Positions 1,058 to 61,088 are shown, counted from the stretch's first letter. The stretch is 64,000 nt of DNA from Patescibacteria group bacterium (GCA_040387855.1 JAZKCY010000001.1:317857-381856); one strand, 5' to 3'. Numbers and translations are program-made. The notes: generated by a model from the letters alone, not told the origin.

Positions 1058-1459
1058 CTAAGAACAGGTGCAGGGGTTCATGAGGTGCACAACCTTAAAT
1101 CGATTTGCACCTTTCATTACGCGTAGGATCTTCAGAACGAAATCGTCGCCGCTCATGTCTTTATTGATTCTGAGCTCGTAATCGTCTTTAACTTCTTTGA
1201 GAAGTACCTCCTTCGCCGATTCAACATCATGTTGATCGGTGATTGAAGGATCCGCTAGAATCTCCACTATTTGTCTAGCCATATTCGGTGCGGATTTGAC
1301 GAAGCGACCAGTGTCCTTCTTTTGCTTCTCCAGTCGAGCATCGAGTTCAGCTTTTTGCCTTGAGGGCAGGCAAGCTGGCTCTTCGAGAGGGTTTGGGGTT
1401 TCTCTTAGGATGACCTTCCTTGGTCCGTAAGTACCGGTAGGAAGTAGAAGCGGATGCAT
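1058..1459 (-). CDS. hypothetical protein, intermediate GC (about 47%)
   Basis: 133-aa ORF with GAGG 5 nt upstream of ATG; no recognisable domain; composition differs from flanking low-GC genes. Confidence 0.4.
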   Translation of the reverse strand: MHPLLLPTGTYGPRKVILRETPNPLEEPACLPSRQKAELDARLEKQKKDTGRFVKSAPNMARQIVEILADPSITDQHDVESAKEVLLKEVKDDYELRINKDMSGDDFVLKILRVMKGANRFKVVHLMNPCTCS

Positions 1460-5459: not shown

Positions 5460-5530
5460 TTAGTATGGATATATTCTACCATGGATGACATTTCAAGAAA
5501 ATAAAAAAGCTCTGTCCAGATGGGCAGGGC

Positions 5531-5905
5531 TTATGCGGCTTCGACGACTTCATGTTGAAGCATAACCAGATCTATGTGTTTGTCCGCAGGCTGACCTGCC
5601 AGCAACTTGTTGATCTGGTAGCGAGCAAGCATGAGGCACGCATTCGGCAGGGACTGGTAGCAGTCCCATCTCAAGACCAGCGAATAGCAAAGGGTCTTGT
5701 CGCACGTGCACAGATGGGGCCACACGGTGGCGTCCATTTCCCAGGGCGGGGTCTTGGCAACTAGCTTCTGATCGTAGATCTGCTTGCTGCTTTGCCTGAG
5801 TACGTCCATGCATTGGGGAAGGAAGTCGTCGATGAGGAACCTCCTCCAGTCGTGGGACCTGCCGAGCATTGCCGCCAGATCCATAACTACTTGATTCGTA
5901 AGCAC
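5531..5905 (-). CDS. hypothetical protein encoded in a high-GC island
   Basis: 124-aa ORF, GGAGGTG upstream of start, island about 5520-5960 is about 60% GC against a 35% background; no recognisable domain. Confidence 0.3.
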   Translation of the reverse strand: MLTNQVVMDLAAMLGRSHDWRRFLIDDFLPQCMDVLRQSSKQIYDQKLVAKTPPWEMDATVWPHLCTCDKTLCYSLVLRWDCYQSLPNACLMLARYQINKLLAGQPADKHIDLVMLQHEVVEAA

Positions 5906-11435: not shown

Positions 11436-11536
11436 ATTACCTCACGTTTGTACATAGGTTCGGGATAAGTATACCTGAAACCATGGTACGATTGAAATGG
11501 AACCATGCTCACCCAAATTACAAGAAAGGAGGCCGC

Positions 11537-12235
11537 ATGCGTCTACCACCATTGAAGCCGATAATTCGTCTGTTTACGTCTCGGCTTGGCGAAGTTGCTC
11601 GACGCTTGTTGCGTCCGCTCGTTACACTCGAAGAAGCAAAATCAATTCTTGGTGATCCATATGTCATCGATGCTGCTACAGCGGCATCGGTGTGGAATAT
11701 GGAGGTGCCTCATGACCTACCGATTCCATTTACCAAGAAGCGACTTATGCGTTGTGCAAAAGCAAATGCCAAAGGTGATAAATGGCGGCTCGTGTGTTGT
11801 TTGGGAATTTCAGTTCTCGACATGCACACCAAGCGGCCTGAAGATTTTTATCACTCGAGCATTTGGCAGCAACACGAACGACCGCAATGGATGTCGGAGC
11901 ACGATGCTCCGTGCTACATGCTCATCAACATGAAGCTTCGGCTTAGGGATGCGGGGAGGGAGCAAATGATGCGGTATTTGATGAACCGCAAAAGAGTGTA
12001 CGCCTGGGCTCACTTTCCTACAGTCGTTGAAACCATCGTTACGCTGACTCACAGCCAGCGAGAAACATGCCTTACTGATGGCATGCATGTAGACCTTACC
12101 GAAGGAGATACTATTCCAACGGTCCAGGTCTTCGACGACGGGGTCAACATCTCGACGACTAACAAAGATGTCGTCGCGATGGGAATCAACACAATGGGCA
12201 TAGTCTTGTGCATTATCCCTGAGTCGCTCTCGTAG
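11537..12235 (+). CDS. hypothetical protein encoded in a high-GC island
   Basis: track ORF 11483..12235; ATG at 11537 (MRLPPLKP) has a perfect AAGGAGG 5 nt upstream; about 52-55% GC; no recognisable domain. Confidence 0.45.
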   Translation: MRLPPLKPIIRLFTSRLGEVARRLLRPLVTLEEAKSILGDPYVIDAATAASVWNMEVPHDLPIPFTKKRLMRCAKANAKGDKWRLVCCLGISVLDMHTKRPEDFYHSSIWQQHERPQWMSEHDAPCYMLINMKLRLRDAGREQMMRYLMNRKRVYAWAHFPTVVETIVTLTHSQRETCLTDGMHVDLTEGDTIPTVQVFDDGVNISTTNKDVVAMGINTMGIVLCIIPESLS

Positions 12236-16307: not shown

Positions 16308-16925
16308 ATGACGGTTGTAGACAACATGGATGTTGGAGCGGCGCTTGCGCTCATGCGTGAAGAGTTGCCCGCGACGCTTTCTGGGGATGAAGTGAAGGCT
16401 GTGTGCGATGAGTGCACGGATCGGAGGTTGGCGGCACTTGCGCCCTCTACCGTTTCGACGGTCAACGTGACGTGCATGGACTTCCGGTTCTGCATCAAGT
16501 CACGTCATGCGTTGCGCACGATGTACGGGGTCGAAAAGCTCGTCGACCTCGTGACCTTCGCTGGTGGAGCCTACAGCTTCGCCGCGACATCAGGTGCGCC
16601 GTGGTGGCAGGTGCACAAGCACGTGTGGATCTGGTGCGTGAAGATGATGGTGCGCTTCGTGATGTGCATCAGCCTTCGGGTCGCCATCTACAAGCATGGC
16701 GTCGAGCGCATCGTGCTCTGCGGTCATGAGCAGTGTGGCCTGTGTTGCCTTCACGGGCATCATTTCGACACGATGGAGGATGACAGGGCGTTCCACCAGG
16801 ATCGTCTCCGGGCCGCGGGTAAGTGGCTGCGGAAGAAGTTTCCCGAGGTAAAGGTTATCTGTTTGTGTTTCCTGTATATGGACGGTGAAGGAGACGTTCA
16901 GCTCAAGGAGTTCGAACAGATGTAG
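16308..16925 (+). CDS. putative beta-class carbonic anhydrase-like protein encoded in a high-GC island
   Basis: GGAGG before ATG; motifs TCMDFRF (C-x-D-x-R) and LCGHEQCG (H-x-x-C) match beta-CA zinc-ligand signatures; about 62% GC; adjacent to a SulP transporter. Confidence 0.4.
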   Translation: MTVVDNMDVGAALALMREELPATLSGDEVKAVCDECTDRRLAALAPSTVSTVNVTCMDFRFCIKSRHALRTMYGVEKLVDLVTFAGGAYSFAATSGAPWWQVHKHVWIWCVKMMVRFVMCISLRVAIYKHGVERIVLCGHEQCGLCCLHGHHFDTMEDDRAFHQDRLRAAGKWLRKKFPEVKVICLCFLYMDGEGDVQLKEFEQM

Positions 16926-19813: not shown

Positions 19814-20581
19814 TCACCTGTCCGGGTGGTGGTGCACGGGATTGAAGTCGCTGGGATCGGACCACCGGTTGGGACGATTGTTCTGGCCTTGTCCCTGACC
19901 TTGGCCTTGACCCTGCTGGTTGTTGACATTGACACCGACGTTGTTGTTCACGCCGACGCCTTGATGATTGCGGTTGGTGGCCACAGCGTGGTTGTTGTTG
20001 TTCACCACAGGCCCTCCCACACGTACTTGGGGGGCTGAGTTGGCGTTGCCACCGGTTGCTCGAGAGCTACCGCCAGCACCACCTTGACCTCCCGTGCCAC
20101 CATCTCCACCGTTTCCACCAGCACCGCCGGTACCCGATCCACCGGAACCACCGTTGCCAGTGCCACCAGTTGCATTGCCACCGTTGACCTTGGTGACGTT
20201 GTTGTATCGGGCGGGATCCTCGACGGCTTTGCCGAGGACATAGGCTGTACCCGTTACAGCTCCTGGCAGGACATTTGCCCCGACTCCTCGATCTGTGGAC
20301 ACGGCGGTTGCCGTGATCACCATCGGAGGAGCCAGGAGGCGATCTGCCGGCTGTGTTGTCGCGACAGCTGGCTGATGGACCGTGGATCGCACGACGCTTT
20401 GGTGCGACTCCATGATGATCCCGTTTTGGCCCCATGGGTTGGTGAACTCGGCGACGGTAACCTCCTTGACGGAGCCGTCGGCCATGATCATGGGGTCCGA
20501 CTTGTACACCTTCAGCTTCGCGCAGCCGCTCGCGAGCGCAATGCTCGCGAGCAGCGCATACAGCACGATTTTGCTGTTCAT
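19814..20581 (-). CDS. secreted Gly/Asn-rich lipoprotein encoded in a high-GC island
   Basis: signal peptide with lipobox LASGC, long low-complexity GGxG / NN / QG tracts, about 63% GC. Confidence 0.5.
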   Translation of the reverse strand: MNSKIVLYALLASIALASGCAKLKVYKSDPMIMADGSVKEVTVAEFTNPWGQNGIIMESHQSVVRSTVHQPAVATTQPADRLLAPPMVITATAVSTDRGVGANVLPGAVTGTAYVLGKAVEDPARYNNVTKVNGGNATGGTGNGGSGGSGTGGAGGNGGDGGTGGQGGAGGSSRATGGNANSAPQVRVGGPVVNNNNHAVATNRNHQGVGVNNNVGVNVNNQQGQGQGQGQGQNNRPNRWSDPSDFNPVHHHPDR

Positions 20582-20613
20582 GTGACCTCCTTGGGTCTTG
20601 GGTTAAGGGTCTG

Positions 20614-22473
20614 TTACTTCACGTTTTCGATGACGCGAACTTTGCCTGGGACGTTGATCCATCCACTGCCTGGTGGCTGATTGGGATCCCGGTACATTGT
20701 GTGCTCCGGAAACTCGAAGATCTCACCGCGGGTGCTACGGCCAAGGTATTGGCCATGTGCGTCTACGATGGGAACTAGTTCACGGAGATTGTATCGCGAA
20801 TCAAACATCGCCACTCCCAGCAAGTTCACAGGATGGTCACCGGATTCGTGAAGCCGGTTCCTGTAGAACACTCGTTGCCCACGTGGCTCGATGTGGACCA
20901 CATCGCTGACGAACTTGCTCTCGTCTACGTCGATGCTCTTTCCATCGGGAGCTGTGGTCACCGGAGCAATCCTGCGGGGTTCCCCAATAAAAACGGCCCC
21001 CGATCCCGTGGATCGGGTGGAGGCCATGGCGGGCGGCGGGGTCACCGTCCTGGTTGGGTTGGTGGTCGCTGCGACGCTCGGCTCGGCCGACGGCACCGTG
21101 GTGCCGTCGGCCGGAGCCGGGGTTGTGGGAACGGGGGAAACAGAAGCTCCGGGACCCGTGGGACCCGAAGTCGGAGGTGCTACTTCGAACATCTCCTTTG
21201 GCGCGTTGCCGAAGGTCATGACCGACGCCTCGAAGGGCGTGAGCTGCGAACCGTTCTTGAAGGTCAGCGCAACCCACTTCTTGCTGGACCGGCGCTGGAA
21301 GTCGTCGACCACCTTGTCGGTGAGCGTGACAACCATGGCCGAACCGCCGTAAGGGATCGTAAGACCCCGAACATGCGGCTCGGCACGCAGGACGATGTGA
21401 GCACCGTCAGGCAAGCCTGAGATACTCGCGACGGCCGGGACATGATCCGGGTGAAGGTTCGACATGCGAACTTCCTTCAACTGGTTCTTGTCGATGAGCG
21501 TCGGCCTTCCTGCCTCGGTCTCGCGGAACAGGATCTGCCACTGATCGTAGGGCAGGCCTTCGTGGTACACGACCGGCATCTCGCTCGGCTTGGGCGGCGG
21601 CGCCACCGCGAGGAGCGGGGGCGTCTTGGCCTTGGGCTTCGGCTTGTCCTCACCACGATCGGGCGTACCGGTCGGGGTGGGTGAGCCTGGCGGGACCGAA
21701 CCTGGTCCGGTAGCCGGCCGGCTTGTGGGCCGGCCGCTCTTGATGCGAGGCGCCGTGGGGTCGGGATCGGAGGGCGTGCCACCGATCTTGTCCTTCACGA
21801 GCTTCACATCATCCGCGACCTTGTCGACTCGGGAGCCAAGCGCGCCGACCTTGTCGTCGACCTTCTTGTCTCCAGCATCCACGTACTCCTTATGAGTCAT
21901 TGGATTGCCTGGCTTCGTACCCTCCATCTCGATCTCCGAGCGGAGCTTGAGGTACTCCTTCCACTCGGAGGGCTGAGTCGGCACGGGTGCGGCGGGGACC
22001 ACGTTCACCGGCGGCGTATCGTTGGAGGGCGCCTTCTTGGCGTTCCACCAGTCGATGCCCGCAGTGATCAGCATGTAGAGGATGACGGCCAGGAGCACCG
22101 CACCGATGATGATGAACCACCTCAGGTTGCGCTGCCACCAGGTCTGGAGTTCGACCGGGTCCGACGAGGCCGGGCCGCCGACGATCGTGTCGTCGGGTCG
22201 CGGCGGGGTAGCGGCGGGGTCGGCGTACTGCCAGGCCTGCACCTTGTAGGTCACCTCGGGGTCCTCCTTGCTCAGGAGCTTGTTGACCTTGTCGGTGAAC
22301 TTGGTGCCGGTGATCTGCCTGTTCGGCAGTGGCGGGGTGGGGCGGTCGCTGGCCTGGCCGGTACGGGTGACGATGTAGTAGTCGGCATCGGGAACGGGTT
22401 CCCAGCTGACCTTCACAACGTTCCCGTGCTGCGTGGCTTCGACGAGCTCCGGGGTAACGAGATTCGTGGGCAT
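20614..22473 (-). CDS. bitopic membrane protein: cytoplasmic FN3-like N-domain, one TM helix, long Pro/Thr-rich extracytoplasmic region with a C-terminal globular domain, encoded in a high-GC island
   Basis: VVKVSWEPVPDADYYIVTR (FN3-like), TM WFIIIGAVLLAVILYMLITAGI, repeats VDDKVGALGSRVDKVADDVKLVKDKIGG, PxxP tracts; about 64% GC. Confidence 0.5.
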   Translation of the reverse strand: MPTNLVTPELVEATQHGNVVKVSWEPVPDADYYIVTRTGQASDRPTPPLPNRQITGTKFTDKVNKLLSKEDPEVTYKVQAWQYADPAATPPRPDDTIVGGPASSDPVELQTWWQRNLRWFIIIGAVLLAVILYMLITAGIDWWNAKKAPSNDTPPVNVVPAAPVPTQPSEWKEYLKLRSEIEMEGTKPGNPMTHKEYVDAGDKKVDDKVGALGSRVDKVADDVKLVKDKIGGTPSDPDPTAPRIKSGRPTSRPATGPGSVPPGSPTPTGTPDRGEDKPKPKAKTPPLLAVAPPPKPSEMPVVYHEGLPYDQWQILFRETEAGRPTLIDKNQLKEVRMSNLHPDHVPAVASISGLPDGAHIVLRAEPHVRGLTIPYGGSAMVVTLTDKVVDDFQRRSSKKWVALTFKNGSQLTPFEASVMTFGNAPKEMFEVAPPTSGPTGPGASVSPVPTTPAPADGTTVPSAEPSVAATTNPTRTVTPPPAMASTRSTGSGAVFIGEPRRIAPVTTAPDGKSIDVDESKFVSDVVHIEPRGQRVFYRNRLHESGDHPVNLLGVAMFDSRYNLRELVPIVDAHGQYLGRSTRGEIFEFPEHTMYRDPNQPPGSGWINVPGKVRVIENVK

Positions 22474-30493: not shown

Positions 30494-32986
30494 TTAAGTT
30501 AGCTTTTTTATTACAATACTATCCTGATTTGTTTCATCAAATGTCTTCAAAAGTTCAGTAGCACGAGATGTAACATTTTGTGGAATCCCCGCAAGCTTTG
30601 CAACTGCAATAGCATAACTTCCATGCGCGCCTCCTCTTGTTAATCTATATAAAAATACCGGATTAGAATTTGATTCCTCAATTGCCATGTGATAGTTTTT
30701 TATCTTTTCAGGATAGTGAGATTCCAGTTGTTGGAGCTCGTGATAGTGTGTTGCAAAAAGAGTTTTTGCAGATTTATTATTCTGAGTTACCAAATATTCT
30801 GCAACAGCCCAGGCAATACTGATTCCGTCATAAGTGCTTGTACCTCTTCCAATTTCATCCATAATAATTAAGCTATCTTGAGTGGCATGATGAAGGATAT
30901 ATGCAGTCTCAACCATCTCCACCATAAATGTAGAAAGTCCTCGGCCGATACTATCTGCAGCACCAGAACGTACAAAGATACGATCAACTAATGAAATGGA
31001 TGCACGCTTGGCTGGCACAAAACTCCCCATATGTGCCATAAGAGTAATGAGAGCAACTTGTCGCATGTACACACTCTTACCAGCCATATTTGGGCCTGTG
31101 AGCATTAGAAGCTGATGATCCTGATTATTTAAATTAGTATTGTTTGGAACAAAAGAAGTATCACGCAATTGTTCTACAACTGGATGTCGACCGTCTTCTA
31201 TTTTTAGCTCACTAGGTGAATCAGGATTTCCTGAAGAGGTTATTTCAGGTTTTACGTAGCGCTCATGTTCTGCCGTTGTTGCAAAACTAATAATGCAATC
31301 AAGTTCGGCAACAGCATGAGCAACTTCTTGAATCCTTTTTGTATGACTTAAAATAAAATAGAGCATCTCCAAAAAGAGCGCGTATTCTTTTTTATTAATT
31401 AAATCTTCGCCATGAAGAACTTTGTCTTCATAAGTTTGAAGTTCGTGGGTGATATATCGCTCGGCATTTACGGTAGTCTGCTTTCTTATATAATCTGAGG
31501 GTACTAAATGCGTATTTGATTTACTGATTTCTATGTAATAACCAAACACACTGTTAAATCTAACTTTAAGTGAACCAATACCAGATCGCTCACGCTCGCG
31601 TTGCTCAAGATTTGCAATCCATACTTGGCTATCACGAATGCTGTCGCGGAGGGCATCAAGTTCTGGATTCACTCCCGATTTCATAAGTCCACCTTCACGA
31701 GATTCAATTGGGGGTTCAGGCACCAGCCGTTCATCAATATAATTAGCAACATGAATAATCTCTGGAATTGTTTTTAATTTATCTTGTATAAATGAAGAAG
31801 GGGAACTTATAGAATTTAATAACTCATAAACTTGTGACGCAGAAAAAAGTGTTGATTTTAAGTTTATTAAATCATGTGGAGTACCAATGCCAACAGAAAG
31901 GCGTGAGACTATTCGTTCAATGTCATACATTCGTGCAAGTTCGAGACGCACTTTTTCTCGAAGTGATCGTTCATGCAATACACATTCAACAGCGTTGAGA
32001 CGAGCTTCTATGTGTTTTTTATTTCGTAAAGGCTCACGAATCCATCGGCGAAGGAGACGTCCTCCCATTGCTGTTCGGGTTTCATCAATGCAGTGTACGA
32101 AAGAGCCAATCTCTTCGTTGTCTCTAATAGTTGAAAAAAGTTCAAGATTAGAAATAGTAGAAGCATCGAGAACAACATGCTCATCAGGAGAGTATGTTTT
32201 AAGTGTATTAATATGCCCAATATTATCTTTTTGAGTGTGTGAGAGATATCCAAGTAATGCTCCTGCCACACGTACTGCCATTGGTTTATCATGCAAGCCA
32301 AAGCTTCTCAGTGTCTTAATTGAAAAATGCTTTTTTAATTTTGTTTCAGCTTGTTCTGCATGAGTATCCCATTCAGGGAAATGATAGACATTACTATTTT
32401 TTGTAGAAGTTAAGAGGCCAAGTAACTCTGCATCATTGTAAAGTTCAGAATTTAAAATACACTCTGATGGCATAAATCGCGCGAGCTCATTATTCAAGAT
32501 ATGAGTAAAATTTTCAGAGTAGGGGATTTCAGTTACTTGAAAATCTCCTGTAGATACATCTGCTACGGCAAATGCTATTGTTGATTCATTCTTAGTAATG
32601 CTCATCGTGTAGTTGTGTTCTTTTGCACGCAATGTTTTTTCATCCAAGATTGACCCAGGAGTAACAATTCTTACAACATCTCTTTGTACTATACCTTTCA
32701 AACTTGGATCACTCACTTGTTCACAGATTGCAACCTTGTGTCCCATTTTTACGAGCTTGGCGATGTAACCATCAGCAGCATGAAAGGGAACACCTGCCAT
32801 AGGAATATCTCCATCTTTTCCCCGAGGTCGTCGGGTAAGTACTATTTCCAAAGCTTTTGCTCCAACAATTGCATCATCTAAAAATAATTCATAAAAATCG
32901 CCAAGTCTAAAAAACAGCAAGCAATCTGGATATTGCTGTTTAATATTCATGTACTGTTGCATCATGGGAGTAGAGAACTCACGCAT
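30494..32986 (-). CDS. mutS: DNA mismatch repair protein MutS
   Basis: N-terminal mismatch-binding motif TPMMQQYMNIKQQYPDCLLFFRLGDFYELF, Walker A GPNMAGKS, 830 aa. Confidence 0.9.
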   Translation of the reverse strand: MREFSTPMMQQYMNIKQQYPDCLLFFRLGDFYELFLDDAIVGAKALEIVLTRRPRGKDGDIPMAGVPFHAADGYIAKLVKMGHKVAICEQVSDPSLKGIVQRDVVRIVTPGSILDEKTLRAKEHNYTMSITKNESTIAFAVADVSTGDFQVTEIPYSENFTHILNNELARFMPSECILNSELYNDAELLGLLTSTKNSNVYHFPEWDTHAEQAETKLKKHFSIKTLRSFGLHDKPMAVRVAGALLGYLSHTQKDNIGHINTLKTYSPDEHVVLDASTISNLELFSTIRDNEEIGSFVHCIDETRTAMGGRLLRRWIREPLRNKKHIEARLNAVECVLHERSLREKVRLELARMYDIERIVSRLSVGIGTPHDLINLKSTLFSASQVYELLNSISSPSSFIQDKLKTIPEIIHVANYIDERLVPEPPIESREGGLMKSGVNPELDALRDSIRDSQVWIANLEQRERERSGIGSLKVRFNSVFGYYIEISKSNTHLVPSDYIRKQTTVNAERYITHELQTYEDKVLHGEDLINKKEYALFLEMLYFILSHTKRIQEVAHAVAELDCIISFATTAEHERYVKPEITSSGNPDSPSELKIEDGRHPVVEQLRDTSFVPNNTNLNNQDHQLLMLTGPNMAGKSVYMRQVALITLMAHMGSFVPAKRASISLVDRIFVRSGAADSIGRGLSTFMVEMVETAYILHHATQDSLIIMDEIGRGTSTYDGISIAWAVAEYLVTQNNKSAKTLFATHYHELQQLESHYPEKIKNYHMAIEESNSNPVFLYRLTRGGAHGSYAIAVAKLAGIPQNVTSRATELLKTFDETNQDSIVIKKLT

Positions 32987-33131
32987 ATGTTCATAGTATA
33001 CATGAAATTATGATCAAGATTGCTGCCATTGCTAAAAGGAGTAATCTGTCCTATAGTACTGATCAGGAGGAGTTGCGGTGGACTGCAGCTCTAAGTCCTA
33101 ATGACAGTGGACAATGTGTGGAGTGTCACTC

Positions 33132-33932
33132 ATGGCACGCACGTATATCGAGAGTCTCGAGAATCGAAGCCATCTTTCTGGTACCTTTGAGGTGTCGGGC
33201 CTGGGTACAACGTACGTGGGCAGGATCAAGATCGAGGTTGAGATCGGTACGGTGACGATCACGGGGACCAAAGGCCCCGACGTGATCGACGCCAAGGTCG
33301 TGAGCGGTAAGAACGCAAGCACGCTCGAGGTCAACGGCAAGAAGGTCACTGTTCCTGCCCGCTTCCACTCCTTCATCATGAAGGGGATGCTCGGCAAGGA
33401 CGACATGACGCTCAACACCCGGGGGTTCCTTCGGAACGAGACGTTGACGTTGATCTACGGCGACGACCCCGACAACTACGAGGTGGGGAGTGCCGACACG
33501 ATCCGTGGCTACTTCGACGGCGAAGGCCTCATCGAGGCTGGCGCAGGTGACGACTTCGTTACTGGCATCGGCCAGCCTGCTACCGGCTTCGGTCGCGTCG
33601 TAAACTTCAACGGTGGCTCGGGCAACGACGTCATTCTCGGTACGTCCGGGGACGACATCCTTACCGGTGGCACTGGCAAGAACAAGATCTATGGCCTGGG
33701 TGGCAACGACATCCTGGTCAGCGAAGGTGGCTTCGACGAGTTGTGGGGAGGGGCCGGCGACGACCAGCTCTTCACAACTGCGAACTACCTCACCACGGGC
33801 CCGACCGTTAGTGGGCTCTTCCGTGGAGGTCCTGGGATCGATCTTGTCGTGGTCTACGATGTGATCGATCCGTCGATCCTCGACTATCTCGACACTCGTA
33901 CCGTGGAGGACATCTACTTCACGTTTGGCTAA
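33132..33932 (+). CDS. secreted RTX-like (beta-roll, GGxGxD nonapeptide repeat) protein, paralog 1, high-GC
   Basis: N-terminal YIESLENRSHLS motif; repeats GGSGNDVILGTSGDDILTGGTGKNKIYGLGGNDILVSEGGFDELWGGAGDDQLF; track ORF 33114, ATG at 33132. Confidence 0.55.
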   Translation: MARTYIESLENRSHLSGTFEVSGLGTTYVGRIKIEVEIGTVTITGTKGPDVIDAKVVSGKNASTLEVNGKKVTVPARFHSFIMKGMLGKDDMTLNTRGFLRNETLTLIYGDDPDNYEVGSADTIRGYFDGEGLIEAGAGDDFVTGIGQPATGFGRVVNFNGGSGNDVILGTSGDDILTGGTGKNKIYGLGGNDILVSEGGFDELWGGAGDDQLFTTANYLTTGPTVSGLFRGGPGIDLVVVYDVIDPSILDYLDTRTVEDIYFTFG

Positions 33933-33967
33933 TAACAAGGTCAATAGAACATTAATGTACATCAACA

Positions 33968-34002
33968 CAGCATATCCTCATGAGGGGAGATGCTGTTTTT
34001 TA
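33968..34002 (+). terminator. rho-independent terminator in the AT-rich spacer between RTX-like genes
   Basis: cagcatatcctc-atg-aggggagatgctg followed by ttttttatt. Confidence 0.55.
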
Positions 34003-34161
34003 TTGTCTATAGTAACTATTTATACTACACCATATGCTTGACTTTTAATCTAATATATGCTATTATACACAACGAATGACCCCGCGTGTGCGGAGGTCTA
34101 TGTTCCCAGAGATTTGGCAAGTTTGCCATTCTCAGTCTGATTTCACTCTCGGAGACTCGAA

Positions 34162-35139
34162 ATGTCCAACATCCTCAGCCTCATCGTCGCTTCCGTCAAG
34201 AAGGCCCTCACCCCCGCCAACAACCCGATCGCACAGGCCATCCGGCCCGTCGTGATCGAGAAGATGGAAGGGCGGACCCTCTTCGCGGTCGCGCCGGCCC
34301 CGATCGAGATGCCGTCGATCAGCGTCGACCTGTTCAACGGGTCGATCAACGTCAACGGCACCAGCAAGTCCGACACCGTCAAGGTGTTCGGGCGAGTGGT
34401 CACCAAGACCGTCAACACCGACATGGGACTCGTCTCGTTCCCGGTGCTGAAGGCCGACTTCGTCGTCAACGGCATGTTGTTCTCCTACACGGGGGCCAAC
34501 AGCAGCGAGTGGTTCACCGTGAACACCGGCGCCGGCAACGACGTGGTGGAGGTGAGCATCGTGACCGGAGGTGCCTTCGGGTACTACGCCGGGTTGATCA
34601 ACACGGGCGCCGGTCTCGACAAGGTCCTCCTCAACCAGGCGGACCAGAGCGTGACCGTCGACACCGGCAACGACGCCGACTACGTGAAGGAGCTCGACGA
34701 CCCCAACAAGGCCCGTCACAACATCCTTCTCGGCAGCGGCAACGACGTCGCGGTGGTCGTGGACGACTACGTCGACGCCGGCAGCGGTGACGACAAGGTC
34801 TACGCGGCCCACAGCATCTTCGCCAACCCGAAGGACAACTTCGGTTCCGTGATCTACGCCGGCGACGGCAACGACACGGTCTACGGCGGTACCGGCGATG
34901 ACTTCATCTCCGGTGGCCGCGGCAAGGACACGATGTTCGCCGGGCTCGGGAACGACACGTTCCTGTACAACGCGTACGAGGTGAAGGACCCGGACAACGC
35001 CAACGGCGGCGCCGGTACCGACTCGGCCGTGCAGTACATCGACATCTCGCGTGGCGAGACGTTGGTGAAGTACCCCGGCATCTTCTCGAGCGTCGAGATC
35101 AAGACGTCGTACAAGTTCGACGGCAACAGCAAGGGCTGA
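34162..35139 (+). CDS. secreted RTX-like repeat protein, paralog 2, high-GC
   Basis: N-terminal VIEKMEGRTLFAVAPAP motif; repeats GSGNDVAVV, GSGDDKVYA, GDGNDTVYGGTGDDFISGGRGKDTMFAGLGNDTF. Confidence 0.55.
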   Translation: MSNILSLIVASVKKALTPANNPIAQAIRPVVIEKMEGRTLFAVAPAPIEMPSISVDLFNGSINVNGTSKSDTVKVFGRVVTKTVNTDMGLVSFPVLKADFVVNGMLFSYTGANSSEWFTVNTGAGNDVVEVSIVTGGAFGYYAGLINTGAGLDKVLLNQADQSVTVDTGNDADYVKELDDPNKARHNILLGSGNDVAVVVDDYVDAGSGDDKVYAAHSIFANPKDNFGSVIYAGDGNDTVYGGTGDDFISGGRGKDTMFAGLGNDTFLYNAYEVKDPDNANGGAGTDSAVQYIDISRGETLVKYPGIFSSVEIKTSYKFDGNSKG

Positions 35140-35213
35140 ACAAGCCCCGGCTAGAACGACAACGGACATACCAAGTACCTTAAACTAGTGCGAGTCACAC
35201 GGCTCACAAGCAC

Positions 35214-35249
35214 GACGGCGATCTCTATGAGGTCGCCGTTTACATTTTT
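35214..35249 (+). terminator. rho-independent terminator in AT-rich spacer
   Basis: acggcga-tctctatgagg-tcgccgt followed by ttacattttt. Confidence 0.5.
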
Positions 35250-35307
35250 GGATGATTTTGAATATAAATTACTTGCCATAAATCATATTATATGGTATTT
35301 TCTTTTT

Positions 35308-35333
35308 AGAAAGGCGCCACGTTGTGTGGCGCT
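35308..35333 (+). promoter_or_regulatory. GC-rich hairpin in the AT-rich 5' region of RTX paralog 3, followed by short direct repeats
   Basis: aggcgccac-gttgt-gtggcgctt; then ggtagtac-tgc-ggtagtac and aatctag-aatctag direct repeats before the start codon. Confidence 0.25.
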
Positions 35334-35402
35334 TCGTCCGATAGGAAAGATTAAGGTAGTACTGCGGTAGTACCTCAATCTAGAATCTAGCAGGAGTGTT
35401 CT

Positions 35403-36335
35403 ATGTTTCTCTCCCAGATCAAGCAGCACCTCGTGTGCTCGATGGGTCTCACCAGCCGCGCCCCCAAGCGTGGTTCGGCTCCCAAGCGTCAGGCGCCGCC
35501 GGTTCGTCCGGTCGTCGAAACGCTCGAGAGCCTGCAGTACATGTCGGCGACGATCCATGACGTCAACGCCAACGGCGACGTCGTCGTTGAAGTCACGGGT
35601 GACGTCGGGTTCTCGAAGAGCTACACCGTGGTCACCGCGTCCAACAACGCGGATGGCATGGCGACGCTCACCGTCTCGCACGGGTACTTGAACCCCGTTG
35701 TCACCACATGGTCGGCCTCGGTCGACACCCCGATCTTCGGGGTCCTGATCCAAGGCGACGGCACCAACAACGAGATCTTCCTCAACGGGCAGACGTCGGT
35801 GTTCGGTGGAGCGCTGATCAGCGTGGACAGCGGAGATGGCAACGACCTGATCGGGGCCGCCGTCGACACCTCGGTGATGCTCAACGGTGGTGCCGGCAAC
35901 GACGGGATCATCTGCGGTGGCATGGCTGCCCTCGCCGAGGGCAGCAGCCCGGTTTTCATCTCCGGTGGCAGTGGCAACGACAACCTGCAGGGCAGTCAGG
36001 GCTTCGACGTCATCAACGGCGGCAGCGGCAACGACTACCTGCAGGGTAACACCGGCAACGATCAGCTCTTCGGCGGGTCGGGCAACGACCGGCTGTGGGG
36101 CAACCAGGGGGACGACTCCCTCAACGGCGGTGTCGGCGACGACTACCTGCGCGGCAACAGCGGCAACGACGTCTACTACCTCGACCTGACCTTCAGGTAC
36201 CAGGGCCGTGAGGTGTTGGATGACACCAGCGGCCGCGACTCGATCTACTACGCGAAGGACACCAACTTCAAGGACATGACGATCAAGGGCCGCTTCGAGG
36301 TCTACCGGCTCGTCCCGAATGCGCCCGGCGTTTGA
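35403..36335 (+). CDS. secreted RTX-like repeat protein, paralog 3, high-GC
   Basis: canonical nonapeptides GGSGNDYLQGNTGNDQLFGGSGNDRLWGNQGDDSLNGGVGDDYLRGNSGNDVYY; N-terminal basic region then VVETLESLQYMS. Confidence 0.6.
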   Translation: MFLSQIKQHLVCSMGLTSRAPKRGSAPKRQAPPVRPVVETLESLQYMSATIHDVNANGDVVVEVTGDVGFSKSYTVVTASNNADGMATLTVSHGYLNPVVTTWSASVDTPIFGVLIQGDGTNNEIFLNGQTSVFGGALISVDSGDGNDLIGAAVDTSVMLNGGAGNDGIICGGMAALAEGSSPVFISGGSGNDNLQGSQGFDVINGGSGNDYLQGNTGNDQLFGGSGNDRLWGNQGDDSLNGGVGDDYLRGNSGNDVYYLDLTFRYQGREVLDDTSGRDSIYYAKDTNFKDMTIKGRFEVYRLVPNAPGV

Positions 36336-36419
36336 GCAGTACTGAGCATGAGGCTCGGTCAAAGTGACCCTTGGGAAAGAGGATTTGTATGTACAACAAC
36401 GTGACAGGATGTCACATAA

Positions 36420-36460
36420 AGCAGCGACTTTGGGTAAAACCGGGTCGCTGCTTTCAATTT
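36420..36460 (+). terminator. rho-independent terminator after the RTX array
   Basis: 9-bp stem agcagcgac-tttgggtaaaaccgg-gtcgctgct followed by ttcaattttc. Confidence 0.6.
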
Positions 36461-36532
36461 TCATAAAATCATGGGTTTATAGTATAGTTATTTCTACGTG
36501 TGTTTTTATTTCAATAATTAGTTTTATAAAGT

Positions 36533-37342
36533 ATGGATTCTACAAAAACAGGAAGAGTGGAAGGGAAGATCGCCCTTGTCACAGGTGCTGCTGATGGAAT
36601 TGGAAAAGCTATTGCAACCAAGCTTGCAGCAGAAGGTGCTACAGTAATAGTTGCCGACATTAATGCAGAACTAGGAACTAAAACTGCAGAGGAATTACGT
36701 GGGGTTTTTATGTCTCTTGATGTGAGTAATGAAGGTGCATGGCAAGATGCAGCGAGCTACATAACTAAAAATTACGGGCATCTCAATATTTTAGTAAACA
36801 ATGCCGGTATCATTGGTAAGGGAGCTCAAGATCCTGAAAATGCATCACTTACTGATTGGCAGGTGATTCATAAAATAAATCTCGACAGTGTGTTTCTTGG
36901 GTGCAAATATGCTATTAAGCTTATGAAAGAAAAGGGAGGTTCTATTGTAAATATGTCATCACGATCAGGAATAGTAGGCGTGCCAGGAGCTGCTGCATAT
37001 GCTTCAACAAAAGCTGCTGTACGAAATCATACAAAATCTGTAGCGCTCTATTGTGCACAGCAAGGATATCCTATTCGATGTAACTCAGTCCATCCTGCAT
37101 CTATCCTCACTGCAATGTGGAAAAATATGTTGGGTGAAGGGGAAGCGTATACAGAAAATCTTAAAAAGTTTGCTAAAGATATTCCAATGCAGCGATTTGG
37201 TACTCCAGAGGAAGTAGCTGCTGCTGTTTTATTCTTGGCTTCTGATGAATCATCTTACACAACTGGATCAGAACTCAATGTAGATGGAGGAATTTTGGCC
37301 GGAACGACAACAAGCCCCGATACAGGGCTTGAGAAGAAGTAA
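36533..37342 (+). CDS. short-chain dehydrogenase/reductase (SDR) family oxidoreductase
   Basis: TGAADGIGKAIA (TGxxxGxG), NNAG, catalytic YASTKAAV. Confidence 0.8.
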   Translation: MDSTKTGRVEGKIALVTGAADGIGKAIATKLAAEGATVIVADINAELGTKTAEELRGVFMSLDVSNEGAWQDAASYITKNYGHLNILVNNAGIIGKGAQDPENASLTDWQVIHKINLDSVFLGCKYAIKLMKEKGGSIVNMSSRSGIVGVPGAAAYASTKAAVRNHTKSVALYCAQQGYPIRCNSVHPASILTAMWKNMLGEGEAYTENLKKFAKDIPMQRFGTPEEVAAAVLFLASDESSYTTGSELNVDGGILAGTTTSPDTGLEKK

Positions 37343-47767: not shown

Positions 47768-48145
47768 CTAGCGGTTTGGGTCGCCCTGCATCTCTTCGGT
47801 CACGAGTGTGATTGTGACAAACTCGAGATCTGGTACTGGCGATGTCACTTCGGCGCAGTGTACGTCGAAGTTGAACAGGGCTGTTTCCGACTGAGGGAAT
47901 CTTCGGTCCCTCCACCACTTTGCTGCTTCAGGAGCGGACTGTTCTAAAGCATTGATCGCATCGACCTGACGGACGATGTACCCTGGTTTGGGACCCAAGG
48001 ACTTGCCATCGACTACTCCCGAAACGCCGAAGCCAATCCGGTCGAAGGCGATGCATGGCATCTCCACACCCACCCATTGGATCCGGATTATTACTGGGGC
48101 TTGACCATCGGGTGTTTCCACGATGACGATCTTTCCTGTAATCAC
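47768..48145 (-). CDS. hypothetical protein encoded in a high-GC island
   Basis: 125-aa ORF with GTG start, about 58% GC, no recognisable domain. Confidence 0.3.
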   Translation of the reverse strand: MITGKIVIVETPDGQAPVIIRIQWVGVEMPCIAFDRIGFGVSGVVDGKSLGPKPGYIVRQVDAINALEQSAPEAAKWWRDRRFPQSETALFNFDVHCAEVTSPVPDLEFVTITLVTEEMQGDPNR

Positions 48146-54293: not shown

Positions 54294-54803
54294 TCAAGGA
54301 ACTTGATCCTTGGGTGCATTATCAGACAAAGGATTTGCCTTTGTCTGATTTTGTTGTGGGGAACTACTTGGGTAGCAGAGGAAAATTGCAGCAACTATCG
54401 CTGCAGAAAATCCCACTGCTTGCATCCATGTGATTCCGCGGTTGACGATGATCGAATAGATCGCCGGTGGGCATGTTTGGGCGACGAGCATCACTACAAA
54501 AAGAATACCCACTTTTGCAGGCATAGCTTCGGATAGCAATGTGTTGAAGATCACCACGCCTCCGGTTGCGATCACTGCAGCAATGATGGTCATTGTCCAG
54601 TTGGCACGGTAGAGCGAACTTGTATCCATCAGTGCCGGAGTGATCAAGAGCGTAAGCTGAATACAGCTCACAACCACACACGTTACAAATCCAGATAGAT
54701 TGCTCTTGTTCATGAACAATGGCCAGATGCCGAAGAGCAATCCCGCTGCGATGGCCATGATTTGATGTTTCATCTCCACAGACTCCACAAAGACTCGGAA
54801 CAT
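54294..54803 (-). CDS. small 4-5-TM membrane protein, intermediate GC
   Basis: hydrophobic ORF; about 48% GC, higher than the flanks; overlapping alternative-frame ORF 54364..54843 considered less likely. Confidence 0.35.
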   Translation of the reverse strand: MFRVFVESVEMKHQIMAIAAGLLFGIWPLFMNKSNLSGFVTCVVVSCIQLTLLITPALMDTSSLYRANWTMTIIAAVIATGGVVIFNTLLSEAMPAKVGILFVVMLVAQTCPPAIYSIIVNRGITWMQAVGFSAAIVAAIFLCYPSSSPQQNQTKANPLSDNAPKDQVP

Positions 54804-57087: not shown

Positions 57088-57852
57088 TCAGAGGATCTGA
57101 TTCATGCCGGCAACGGTGATCTTGAGGTTTTCGTACAGCCCGGGCACACCAACTGTGCTGTAGGATTGGCCATCTGGAGCAATGAACACGAGGTCACAGT
57201 CGCATACGAGCTCATTGCAGCCCGGGCAGGTTTGGTAGCGATCAAACACCTCCTGCTCGAGATCGATACCACGCACGTATGCGAGCGTGAGTAGCCAGCT
57301 GAGTACATCTGCAGCTTCGAGCTCAGACTGGTGATCTGCCATACCACCACGAAGAGGTGTATGTGGGCCTCTCGACTGGATGATGCTCAGTTCACCGACT
57401 TCGCTTACGAGCCTGCCGTAGATCTTCCAGAACTTGTCGCCCTGAAGGTGTCGCCAGCCGTAGACGGTCTTGAGGTGCTCTTGCCACCGTCTCAACGTCC
57501 AGCCGCGCTGCTCATCATGCAGCTTGTAATCCTTTGGGTCGGGACGGGTTGCATCATTGCAGTCGCAGGGCATGTGCGTGCAGTACAAGCAGCCATACGG
57601 CGGGAACTTGTACATCATCCCGCGCTCAAGGTCGACGCGACCATTGAAGAAATTGACTACGTTGTAGAAGTAGCTGACACTTCTCGCAAGTCGTCCGGGC
57701 AGGCGCTCGCTTTTCCGCTCCGCATCAGCGATCTTGCCGACGCGGTAGATCATATGGCCTGCACGTTCCGGGAACGAACCTCCGGTGTGTTGAACACGAC
57801 GGTTGTACATCCGGTTGAAATGGTTCTGCAGTCCGAGAATGGTGGTTTCCAT
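57088..57852 (-). CDS. Cys-rich protein with C-terminal MazG-like nucleotide pyrophosphohydrolase motifs, encoded in a high-GC island
   Basis: LVSEVGELSII and ELEAADVLSWLLTLAYVRGIDLEQEV match the MazG E-x-x-E-x-G-E-L / E-x-x-D-x-L pattern; CxxC pairs CLYCTHMPCDC and CPGCNELVCDC; about 60% GC. Confidence 0.4.
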   Translation of the reverse strand: METTILGLQNHFNRMYNRRVQHTGGSFPERAGHMIYRVGKIADAERKSERLPGRLARSVSYFYNVVNFFNGRVDLERGMMYKFPPYGCLYCTHMPCDCNDATRPDPKDYKLHDEQRGWTLRRWQEHLKTVYGWRHLQGDKFWKIYGRLVSEVGELSIIQSRGPHTPLRGGMADHQSELEAADVLSWLLTLAYVRGIDLEQEVFDRYQTCPGCNELVCDCDLVFIAPDGQSYSTVGVPGLYENLKITVAGMNQIL

Positions 57853-58858: not shown

Positions 58859-59371
58859 TTACGGCTTGATCCACACCGCAGTGGACTCTGCTGAGATCGT
58901 CGTTGATGTGCTACCAGTGGAGCTCACGGTTATGCGAACTCCCTGGCCGGTCACGCTGTAGACGCCACCTCTTTGGAAACCGCTAATGCTCTTGCTAACC
59001 GTGGTGTCGGTCGAGTAGACCTTGAACGTGGCAAGTGCCACTTGGCGCATAGTGCCAGTGGTTTGCTGTTGGCGGATCACCAGCCGAGTATGTGTGGCCC
59101 GAGGACCACTTGGGTTGATGGTGTAGGTGAACTTCACCGTCGCCGCACCCGTAAGCGTATTACGGGCGACGATCTGCCGCTGCAGGTAGAGCGGTGGTTG
59201 TACCCGCGTTACCGAGGTTGTGGTCACCGCTCTAAGGTTGTAGGTGTAAGCAGCCTGTGCCACCGAGTCGAGAATCGATGTCGCGCCTCCACCGAGGCCA
59301 ACCGACATCACAGTACGATTTTCGAGACATTCAACATACGGAAGCATGAAACGTAGTCCTTCTGCATGCAA
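58859..59371 (-). CDS. secreted Thr/Ser-rich protein with N-terminal LENR motif, encoded in a high-GC island
   Basis: TTG start; N-terminus MLPYVECLENRTVMSVGLGGG shares the LExRxxxS motif with the RTX-like paralogs; beta-rich TxT repeats; about 60% GC. Confidence 0.4.
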   Translation of the reverse strand: MHAEGLRFMLPYVECLENRTVMSVGLGGGATSILDSVAQAAYTYNLRAVTTTSVTRVQPPLYLQRQIVARNTLTGAATVKFTYTINPSGPRATHTRLVIRQQQTTGTMRQVALATFKVYSTDTTVSKSISGFQRGGVYSVTGQGVRITVSSTGSTSTTISAESTAVWIKP

Positions 59372-60431: not shown

Positions 60432-61088
60432 TCATCGACGACGGCGACGAGCGAGAAGTCCTATGCCAGCGAGTCCTGTTAGTGCAACGGATCCTGGCTC
60501 AGGCGCTTGGGTCAGCACGAAGGTCTTGATCTCGACGTGGGAAGCTGGACCGCGGAGGTCGAAGTGGTAGACCGCGGTGAGTGTGCCGTTCGAGCTTTTG
60601 CTCAGACTTCCGATGGCATTGTCGACGAGGCCTGATGACAGAGTAAACTGCACCATGCCCACATCGAGTTGGCCCATCGAATCGTTGATGTGATCGAGAT
60701 CGATGGCACCGGCAAACGTTGCCGGTGTACCATGGGTTTCGCTGAACGGCAGGGTCTGCGTGCTTGCGCTTCGCATCGAGCGGATGTCTCGACCGGTCAT
60801 CTTCACATCCACCGAGTACGTGTAGTACTCCTTTTGTTGGTATGTGATTTCCACGAGATCGATCGTCGCACTCGTTATGAGTCGAGCCGCGAGCGATCCT
60901 GTTGAGGGATCGATCGAGTACTGCTGCGAGATGATTCCAGAGTCGATCGTCATGACCGTCTGGGAATCGGACTTGATCCCGGACGCGCTCAAGGGGTTGA
61001 GGGTGATGAGCGAAGCCTGCGTGGCCGAGCTCAGGGAGAGAATGGCCACGATGAATGCGAGAGCGGACTTCATTGAGAATCCCTTCAC
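60432..61088 (-). CDS. PEP-CTERM sorting-signal secreted protein (exosortase substrate type), encoded in a high-GC island
   Basis: signal peptide MKSALAFIVAILSLSSATQA; C-terminus PEPGSVALTGLAGIGLLARRRRR (PEP motif + TM + Arg cluster); about 60% GC. Confidence 0.6.
   Translation of the reverse strand: MKGFSMKSALAFIVAILSLSSATQASLITLNPLSASGIKSDSQTVMTIDSGIISQQYSIDPSTGSLAARLITSATIDLVEITYQQKEYYTYSVDVKMTGRDIRSMRSASTQTLPFSETHGTPATFAGAIDLDHINDSMGQLDVGMVQFTLSSGLVDNAIGSLSKSSNGTLTAVYHFDLRGPASHVEIKTFVLTQAPEPGSVALTGLAGIGLLARRRRR

Follow-up and report, generated by a model that had tools for sequence, protein, structure and literature searches.

We analysed a 64,000-nt stretch of a Patescibacteria genome (GCA_040387855.1, JAZKCY010000001.1:317857-381856; hereafter, the window), in which three genes for RTX-repeat proteins stand side by side on the plus strand. 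P1 (33132..33932) encodes 266 aa, P2 (34162..35139) encodes 325 aa, and P3 (35403..36335) encodes 310 aa, and all three open reading frames (ORFs) are preceded by a ribosome-binding site (RBS), which is GGAG 9 nt upstream of P1, GGAG 7 nt upstream of P2, and AGGAG 6 nt before the ATG of P3. The P1 start at 33132 was chosen over the ATG at 33114 because the former has the GGAG and is the start used by NCBI, while the latter has no RBS. An earlier, preliminary description of this DNA had also placed three same-strand genes here, with P1 starting at 33132, and both points were borne out. The proteins are deposited in GenBank as MES2436743.1 (P1, "calcium-binding protein"), MES2436744.1 (P2, V4519_01930, "hypothetical protein") and MES2436745.1 (P3), on a 981,549-bp contig recorded as "MAG: Patescibacteria group bacterium" (MAG, metagenome-assembled genome); NCBI had already labelled two of the three proteins as calcium-binding. 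The genome is AT-rich (~37% GC). The array is flanked by mutS on the left (30494..32986, minus strand) and by an SDR gene on the right (36533..37342, plus strand), in agreement with the preliminary description, which had noted the low GC of mutS. The GC content at third codon positions (GC3) is 0.26 in both flanking genes, and both are native.

The Pfam search proposed in the preliminary description was performed, and all three proteins matched HemolysinCabind (PF00353) above the gathering cut-off of 23 bits, with scores of 49 (P1), 42.6 (P2) and 63.5 (P3). NCBIfam models of RTX proteins, serralysins and lipases also matched all three, via the repeat region only. Canonical nonapeptides (GGxGxDxUx) were found about six times in P1 (33612..33773, plus strand; residues 161-214), three to four times in P2 (residues 242-290, in addition to degenerate GxGND units from residue 120) and nine times in P3 (residues 162-259). 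They cover 15-30% of each protein, Gly and Asp together account for 21-26% of the residues, and no canonical repeats occur in the N-terminal ~120-160 residues; to call the proteins dominated by nonapeptide repeats, as had been done, was an overstatement. Each protein is composed of a putative N-terminal leader, a β-strand-rich middle part and an RTX β-roll. P3 matched solved RTX β-rolls, with CyaA at an E value of 6e-35 and serralysins, lipases and AlgE R-modules following down to 1e-5, and its C-terminal stretch aligned with the end of RTX block V of CyaA. The AlphaFold model of P2, which was built from a 30-sequence alignment, consists of short, regularly spaced strands, with a predicted local distance difference test score (pLDDT) of 66 overall and of 70-90 across most of residues 120-290; the predicted β-roll/β-helix spans residues ~118-291. 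The single-sequence model of P3 was poor overall and placed strands at nine-residue spacing in residues 184-251 (pLDDT 65-80). The best PDB matches of the P2 model were all Ca2+ β-helix or RTX structures, and the best was region IV of the Marinomonas primoryensis adhesin/antifreeze protein MpAFP (PDB 3p4g), a weak match (E 3e-3, TM 0.35, 20% identity). That region is a Ca2+-stabilised β-helix of degenerate Gly/Asp-rich repeats that serves as an adhesin binding surface, within a 1.5-MDa substrate of a type I secretion system (T1SS). These results supported the earlier reading of an RTX-type, Ca2+-binding β-roll and indicated that P1-P3 are RTX-repeat β-roll proteins, with Ca2+ binding as a prediction from repeats and models. 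Since P3 matches solved RTX structures and the predicted fold is a β-roll, Ca2+-dependent folding outside the cell is likely.

P1-P3 share their repeats, their matches at the sequence level and the predicted β-roll with the RTX modules of CyaA, serralysin/PrtC, the Pseudomonas lipase PML and AlgE. They differ from the T1SS substrates that carry such modules in that they are only 266-325 aa long, have no catalytic or toxin domain, bear an N-terminal leader motif and are encoded in a putatively monoderm member of the Candidate Phyla Radiation (CPR). With the RTX family defined as in Linhartova et al. 2010 (PMC3034196), the tandem GGxGxDxUx nonapeptides and the parallel β-roll, with its putative Ca2+ binding, were found here, whereas a T1SS exporter nearby (within the 64-kb window) and a diderm producer (judging from the Patescibacteria label) were not.

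The preliminary description treated the three genes as a paralogous array and suggested pairwise alignment to date the duplications. The alignments were performed and gave no support for local duplication. BLASTP between pairs of the proteins found 36-40% identity over 84-93 aa, in the repeat region only, and whole-length comparison gave 25% identity with 28% gaps. At the DNA level, the three genes share a 27-nt repeat periodicity and nothing else. Recent tandem duplication was therefore rejected. Each of the three proteins is a singleton at 90% clustering.

The spacers between the genes are AT-rich, as had been stated, with GC contents of 0.38 at 33933-34161 (core 0.30) and 0.43 at 35140-35402 (core 0.20), compared with 0.59, 0.63 and 0.64 in the P1, P2 and P3 ORFs. 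The hairpin terminators reported for the two spacers were confirmed, and a third was found after P3. The P1 terminator (33967..34004, plus strand) consists of a hairpin at 33967-33996 followed by TTTTTTATT (dG -16.4 kcal/mol, z -4.5), the P2 terminator (35214..35250, plus strand) of a 12-bp stem and a T-run (dG -19.5 kcal/mol, z -5.0), and the P3 terminator (36418..36466, plus strand) of a hairpin at 36418-36454 and a T-rich tail (dG -22.5 kcal/mol, z -6.5). The z-scores are relative to shuffled sequences, and none of 200 shuffles folded as well. Sigma-70-like matches were observed 70-95 nt upstream of each gene, all on the plus strand: TTGCTA-17-TATAGT at 33029..33057 for P1, TTGACT-17-TGnTATTAT at 34038..34066 for P2 (10 of 12 matches) and TTGCCA-17-TGnTATTTT at 35273..35301 for P3. 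The region 32900-36600 contains five such sites, compared with 1.5 expected; they are matches to a consensus only, and in the AT-rich rest of the window such matches occur at chance level. The putative P3 5' untranslated region (UTR; 35305..35402, plus strand) is moderately GC-rich and structured (dG -35.6, z -3.6 against shuffles), starting with a 9-bp GC hairpin and ending in the AGGAG RBS; folding of the P1 and P2 leader regions was unremarkable (z -1.7 and -1.9). Each gene may thus form a separate unit, with a promoter-like site, a 70-95-nt leader region carrying a GGAG RBS, the ORF, and a hairpin terminator with a T-run, and the three would be transcribed one by one. Integron cassettes were rejected, since the spacers have no conserved inverted-repeat element (attC) and each holds a terminator and a promoter-like site; no integron integrase domain was found in the window ORFs. 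RNA genes or riboswitches in the spacers were likewise rejected, as no Rfam match at the gathering level, spacers included, and no tRNA was found in the window. Across the whole window, TTTTTTATT occurs 18 times, compared with 3.4 expected (e.g., at 5500, 12246, 16954, 19733, 33996, 47748 and 57070). About eight of the copies are terminator T-runs at the 3' ends of GC-rich genes, and the native terminators have similar T-runs.

The contrast between high-GC genes and AT-rich spacers had been recognised before, whereas the inference that matters most, a foreign origin within an AT-rich CPR genome, had not. It had also gone unnoticed that the anomaly lies chiefly at third codon positions and is not unique to the RTX array. 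GC3 is 0.77 in P1, 0.94 in P2 and 0.88 in P3, compared with 0.26 ± 0.04 (maximum 0.40) in 44 native genes, and 14 of the 58 genes, covering 16% of the window, are anomalous, with GC3 values of 0.49-0.94. Codon choice is inverted: AAG, AAC, ATC and GAC hold 85-100% of their respective choices in the RTX genes versus 15-34% in the native genes, and in P2 they are used in 18 of 18, 25 of 25, 18 of 18 and 29 of 30 cases. The 64 kb alternate between low and high GC about 12 times, with a terminator or a promoter-like site at the border of each alternation. Such sharp switches in a metagenome-assembled genome might suggest that foreign GC-rich reads had been joined into an AT-rich contig during assembly or binning. 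This explanation is extremely improbable, since a separate Logan assembly (run SRR26324620) contains a 62-kb contig with 100% identity over 19,091 bp spanning the array, the switches coincide with terminators or promoter-like sites, and a chimera would require dozens of long k-mers common to unrelated genomes. Each RTX gene is also covered by a long ORF on the opposite strand (33126-33968, 280 aa; 34132-35169, 345 aa; 35283-36464, 393 aa; all minus). We rejected these shadow ORFs as true genes, because the Logan gene calls list no Pfam families for them, and because the plus-strand frames have PF00353 matches, a GC3 far above GC1 and GC2, and the NCBI annotation. The gene calls on the Logan contig had chosen antisense ORFs (270, 345 and 393 aa, without Pfam match) and missed the RTX frames; that an automatic gene caller did so in all three blocks is a practical warning.

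We compared the slot between mutS and the SDR gene (window 32987-36532) with the corresponding regions of three relatives, L002 (2943-4844), L028 (2799-4572) and L032 (16013-19900). L028 was obtained from the 90% cluster of MutS and L032 through a homologue of another GC-rich gene, which encodes a 254-aa protein. L028 is the closest relative found. Its mutS is 84% identical in DNA, and homology reaches as far as window position 33021, which is 35 bp upstream of mutS; its slot holds genes for a major facilitator superfamily (MFS) transporter, MazE and a TIG-domain protein, all of 31-46% GC. In L002, msrA, msrB and a histidine kinase (HK) gene adjoin mutS-mutL, and L032 has the order SDR-HK-msrB-msrA, compared with SDR-P3-P2-P1-mutS-mutL in the window. 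The RTX genes were absent from the slot in all three relatives, which are uniformly low in GC and have no strong GC-rich block. The slot upstream of mutS thus differs in every relative sampled, with mutS-mutL conserved, and looks like a local gene-turnover hot spot. Orthologues in L032 are 60-75% identical to the window genes overall (75% for the SDR gene). The nearest MutS among GTDB representatives (67%) comes from a MAG labelled Saccharibacteria, and a scan of metagenome contigs gave nothing closer than 47%.

Near the N-terminus, P1 and P2 carry putative leaders of the ExLExRxLL[AS] type, IESLENRSHLS (33150..33176, plus strand) and IEKMEGRTLFA (34258..34284, plus strand). The leader-like VETLESLQYMS of P3 (35517..35543, plus strand) follows a K/R/P-rich stretch and is the weakest of the three, with R replaced by L. 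A fourth leader, VECLENRTVMS, was observed in a GC-rich ORF at 58859-59371 (minus). The motif expression had been derived from these four sequences, and an independent test was therefore made with a hidden Markov model (HMM) built from the leaders of eight database proteins and scanned over all six-frame segments of the window. The segment 58862-59398 (minus) ranked first (E 0.03), P2 second (E 0.057), P1 third (E 0.5) and P3 eleventh. The database hits that covered most of the queries (P0033, P0050, P0073, P0122, P0225, P0135, P0274 and P0344) combine such a leader with an "xLxIxGTxxxDxIxV" strand and RTX repeats. Among them, P0122 and P0225 are the best full-length hits of P2 and carry the same leader type, P0274, a hit of P1, carries the leader IESLESRAMMAG, and the leader of P0050 matches PF07595 (Planc_extracel) at E 2.5e-4 (21 bits, under the cut-off of 25.5). 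Two hits, P0021 and P0103, are from MAGs named Planctomycetota; P0103 has the leader E-L-F-E-A-R and was one of the eight training leaders, and P0021 shows a looser form only (EMLQKREMMAG). PMC8567305, citing Studholme 2004, describes RRLxxExLExRxLLA as a signal by which planctomycetes export proteins to the cell surface, and counts 52 such proteins in Tuwongella immobilis.

The contigs that encode the leader-bearing hits have 53-57% GC. One of them, a 57%-GC metagenome contig (L051 3219-11224), contains a same-strand array of leader-RTX genes; the N-termini of two of their products do not differ at any of the 67 residues compared (MAKKHRKLGNRIESLESRAMMAG...). The contig further encodes ECF sigma factors of PF07638, which we take to be a planctomycete-derived Pfam family. 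Tandem same-strand arrays therefore exist among leader-RTX genes. The spacers of that array have GC contents of 0.55-0.61, so a natural leader-RTX array has GC-rich spacers, unlike the one in the window. As in the planctomycete proteins, the motif in P1-P3 lies 6-45 residues from the N-terminus and is followed by the "xLxIxGTxxxDxIxV" strand and RTX repeats. The differences are that P1-P3 are encoded in a Patescibacteria genome, with AT-rich spacers, and that their motifs are degenerate: P3 has no Arg, and P1 and P2 have no strongly basic stretch before the motif. As proteins, P1-P3 belong to a known leader-RTX planctomycete architecture. What is unusual here is how extremely GC3 departs from that of the native genes, that the sorting signals are of the diderm type, and that every unit has a terminator in the style of the host genome and a promoter-like site. 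The PF07595 type is encoded in Planctomycetota, whereas the present genome is labelled Patescibacteria; our claim concerns the origin of the genes and not the membership of the organism.

The preliminary description considered the proteins as type I secretion substrates, while noting that ABC transporter, membrane fusion protein (MFP) and TolC-like genes are missing from the window. The latter was confirmed, as Pfam found no ABC-, HlyD- or TolC-type domain in ~45 ORFs of the window; the former found no support. It is doubtful that P1-P3 are ordinary T1SS substrates that would carry a C-terminal signal and leave through an ABC/MFP/outer-membrane system whose genes lie in another part of the genome. 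RTX repeats are named as a hallmark of T1SS substrates in PMC3034196 and PMC6891781, the C-terminal part of P3 aligns with the end of CyaA block V, none of the three sequences has a classical Sec signal peptide, and the inspected stretch is 64 kb of a 981-kb contig. On the other hand, no T1SS component lies in the window, and NCBIfam models of T1SS C-terminal target domains had no match in P1-P3 at E ≤ 0.1. Most T1SS signals are not recognisable by sequence. The absence of an outer membrane has been proposed for Patescibacteria (PMC12102498), the phylum with which this genome is labelled, and in Actinomycetota, RTX repeats are found in proteins with Sec/Tat signals as well, so that the repeats alone do not imply a T1SS. 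All three proteins, moreover, have a planctomycete-type motif at the N-terminus. With no T1SS nearby, no recognisable C-terminal domain, an outer membrane proposed to be absent and RTX repeats behind Sec/Tat signals elsewhere, export through a classical ABC/MFP/TolC system appears unlikely, if the proteins are exported at all. We therefore use the name RTX-repeat β-roll proteins rather than T1SS substrates, since they show no linked T1SS genes in the window, no recognisable C-terminal signal and, judging from the Patescibacteria label, no diderm producer.

Considering these results together, we lean with moderate confidence towards the reading that P1-P3 are planctomycete-type Ca2+-binding surface β-roll proteins that were acquired horizontally by a CPR genome, in which they form three single-gene units with host-style terminators. 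In this scenario, the genes would have come from GC-rich diderm donors of the planctomycete type (Planctomycetes-Verrucomicrobia-Chlamydiae, PVC), and the three units would occupy the variable slot between mutS and the SDR gene. Arrival was probably in separate events, because none of the genes is a duplicate of another and the spacers have AT-rich cores that resemble native DNA. The products may act as extracellular or surface proteins with a Ca2+-dependent binding or structural role; by analogy with other RTX modules, they would be disordered inside the cell, where Ca2+ is low, and take up their fold once they meet external Ca2+. A plausible site of action is the cell-cell interface between symbiont and host.

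Several observations weigh against this acquisition from planctomycete-type donors. No close donor homologue was found among 5.8 billion proteins, where the best non-self matches have 27-41% identity, mostly in the repeats. A GC3 of 0.94 leaves little time for amelioration, which is at odds with this lack. No mobility genes, tRNAs, direct repeats or attC-like sites were found at the borders of the array. The leader HMM values are marginal (E 0.03-0.5, with P3 only eleventh), and the window proteins fall below the Pfam reporting level for PF07595. In GC-rich DNA, chance is enough to keep long ORFs open, as illustrated by the antisense ORFs of 280-393 aa. The same codon preferences, including CTC>CTG, are present in all 14 GC-rich genes. 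The GC-rich DNA starts 68-90 nt before the start codons, directly past a -10-like hexamer, and ends at the T-run; for P1, the change point lies 68 nt before the start codon, directly past the -10 hexamer, and about 10 of the 12 GC-rich units in the window show the same borders. With borders at the -10-like box and the terminator T-run, the GC-rich blocks have the shape of transcripts, which random integration of donor fragments would not predict. The amino-acid composition of P2 also fits a GC-rich donor poorly. It resembles that of an AT-rich genome, with a FYMINK fraction of 0.29 and a K/(K+R) of 0.75, at the 96th percentile of 349 RTX hits, compared with 0.30 and 0.61 in the native genes, and its GC1 (0.55) and GC2 (0.40) are native-like. 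Finally, the GC-rich gene for the 254-aa protein (57088-57852, minus; GC3 0.67), a family that one source names "NTP pyrophosphatase", has homologues in low-GC CPR-like contigs (L032 9610-10338, L035 8001-8759 and L037 4309-5034). The copy in L032, a deeply diverged relative, is 52% identical, likewise lies downstream of a Lactamase_B gene and has a GC3 of 0.44, where the background is 0.22. A difference of this kind should not have survived neutral amelioration. The raised GC appears to be either retained or restored. Since the family belongs natively to CPR-like genomes of low GC, planctomycete import does not account for every GC-rich gene, and a different process may be involved.

Many of these points would be expected if the genes were long-term residents whose GC-rich transcript composition was made or kept in place. 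Conceivable mechanisms are selection acting on the structure or stability of the mRNA, biased gene conversion within a pool of recombining accessory genes, and GC-rich alleles of related lineages that repeatedly replaced the local ones. The coincidence of GC-rich DNA with putative transcription units, the combination of a P2 GC3 of 0.94 with AT-type amino acids, the codon preferences common to all 14 genes, the raised GC3 kept by the 254-aa gene in a relative with no more than 60-75% identity between orthologues, the lack of close donor homologues, and the host-style terminators and promoter-like sites all fit this explanation. Nevertheless, we consider it unlikely. We know of no bacterial process that yields single genes with a GC3 of 0.94 in a genome at 0.26. 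The RTX genes are missing from the same slot in three relatives, the planctomycete-type leader and the PEP-CTERM signal of a further GC-rich gene point to a foreign source, and the two-gene block at 19814-22473 keeps a GC-rich spacer and GC-rich first and second codon positions, as imported DNA would. The extreme GC3, set against the host-style terminators and promoter-like sites and the AT-type composition of P2, is a small but real puzzle for amelioration models.

It is similarly improbable that the genes are recently arrived, functionless passenger DNA, left intact only through the scarcity of stop codons in GC-rich DNA, with products that are not exported, and bound to decay. The equal length of the antisense ORFs would agree with such an origin, as would the singleton status of P1-P3 at 90% clustering and the presence of planctomycete leader and PEP-CTERM signals in a CPR cell without known machinery for them, of which the window holds none. 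Against it, each gene has a well-placed GGAG RBS, a promoter-like site and a strong terminator in the host style, no part of the domain architecture is missing between the leader and the C-terminal cap, and a streamlined genome would be carrying 16% of this window as useless DNA.

As in a genomic island, the composition and codon usage of the array are deviant and the genes are absent from the same locus in relatives, whereas mobility genes, tRNAs, flanking repeats and an identifiable donor with close homologues were not found. Horizontal gene transfer, most of it between members of the phylum, has been reported to contribute as much as 13% of the genome length in Patescibacteria (PMC12455944). 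The GC-rich genes resemble those islands as deviant, lineage-specific accessory genes, here in 16% of the window. Unlike those islands, they lie scattered, singly or in groups of up to three, and lack mobility genes, show an extreme GC3 contrast (0.26 versus up to 0.94) and diderm, planctomycete-type signals, and have a host-style terminator and a promoter-like site per gene. Among the papers searched, none linked RTX proteins to CPR bacteria. Hosts are unknown for almost all Patescibacteria, and little is understood of how these cells attach to them. Should the foreign origin hold, the donor signature could predict the host or a close neighbour, and the RTX proteins would be candidates for the attachment interface. 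In this segment of a streamlined CPR genome, GC-rich single-gene units take up about one sixth of the DNA, and several of them encode surface-type proteins with planctomycete-style sorting signals. The weight of the finding lies in this possible clue to host or donor and in the transcript-shaped GC mosaic, more than in the RTX proteins themselves.

The 11 further GC-rich genes have GC3 values of 0.49-0.78; several are ORFans, and most stand singly in AT-rich surroundings, with a terminator of the hairpin and TTTTTTATT type. In addition to the 254-aa gene, they lie at 1058-1459 (minus), 5531-5905 (minus), 11483-12235 (plus), 16308-16925 (plus; a Pro_CA_2 protein), 19814-20581 and 20614-22473 (minus), 47768-48145 (minus), 54294-54803 (minus), 58859-59371 (minus) and 60432-61088 (minus). 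The two genes of the block 19814-22473 encode a 619-aa Pro/Thr-rich protein with one transmembrane segment and a 255-aa lipoprotein-like Gly/Asn/Gln-rich protein. Their GC1 (0.63-0.65) and GC2 (0.49-0.52) are also high, and they were probably imported together, because they are joined by a GC-rich 32-bp spacer, which contains AGGAGG. The ORF at 58859-59371 has the planctomycete-type leader MLPYVECLENRTVMS and no RTX repeats; its exact sequence is absent from the protein collection, and it may be unannotated or called with another start. The gene at 60432-61088 encodes a PEP-CTERM protein (TIGR02595, E 3e-5; PF07589, 21.9 bits with a cut-off of 20.7), with a Sec-like signal peptide and a C-terminal sorting domain. 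A promoter match of 11 of 12 positions lies just upstream (61175-61148), and no exosortase was found in the window. A prophage or phage origin was rejected, as ten other GC-rich ORFs had no PHROG match and P2 had no viral relative.

The three RTX genes, the fourth leader-bearing ORF, the PEP-CTERM gene and the nine others may alternatively form a dedicated host-directed set, whose transcripts would be kept at a host-like GC over their full length, beyond the codons, and whose products or nucleic acids would act in or on the host through the host's machinery. We regard this as very unlikely. If it were true, the sorting signals would be ones that only a diderm host could read, and they would name a Planctomycetota/PVC host for a Saccharibacteria-like CPR lineage.

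By Pfam, no integrase, transposase or exosortase domain was detected in the window ORFs, and no direct repeats were found to flank the array. The remaining genes of the window are of a housekeeping type, including those for a sigma-70 factor, an AddA-like helicase, HisRS, TruB, BipA, glycogen metabolism, MutS/MutL, two-component systems and transporters.

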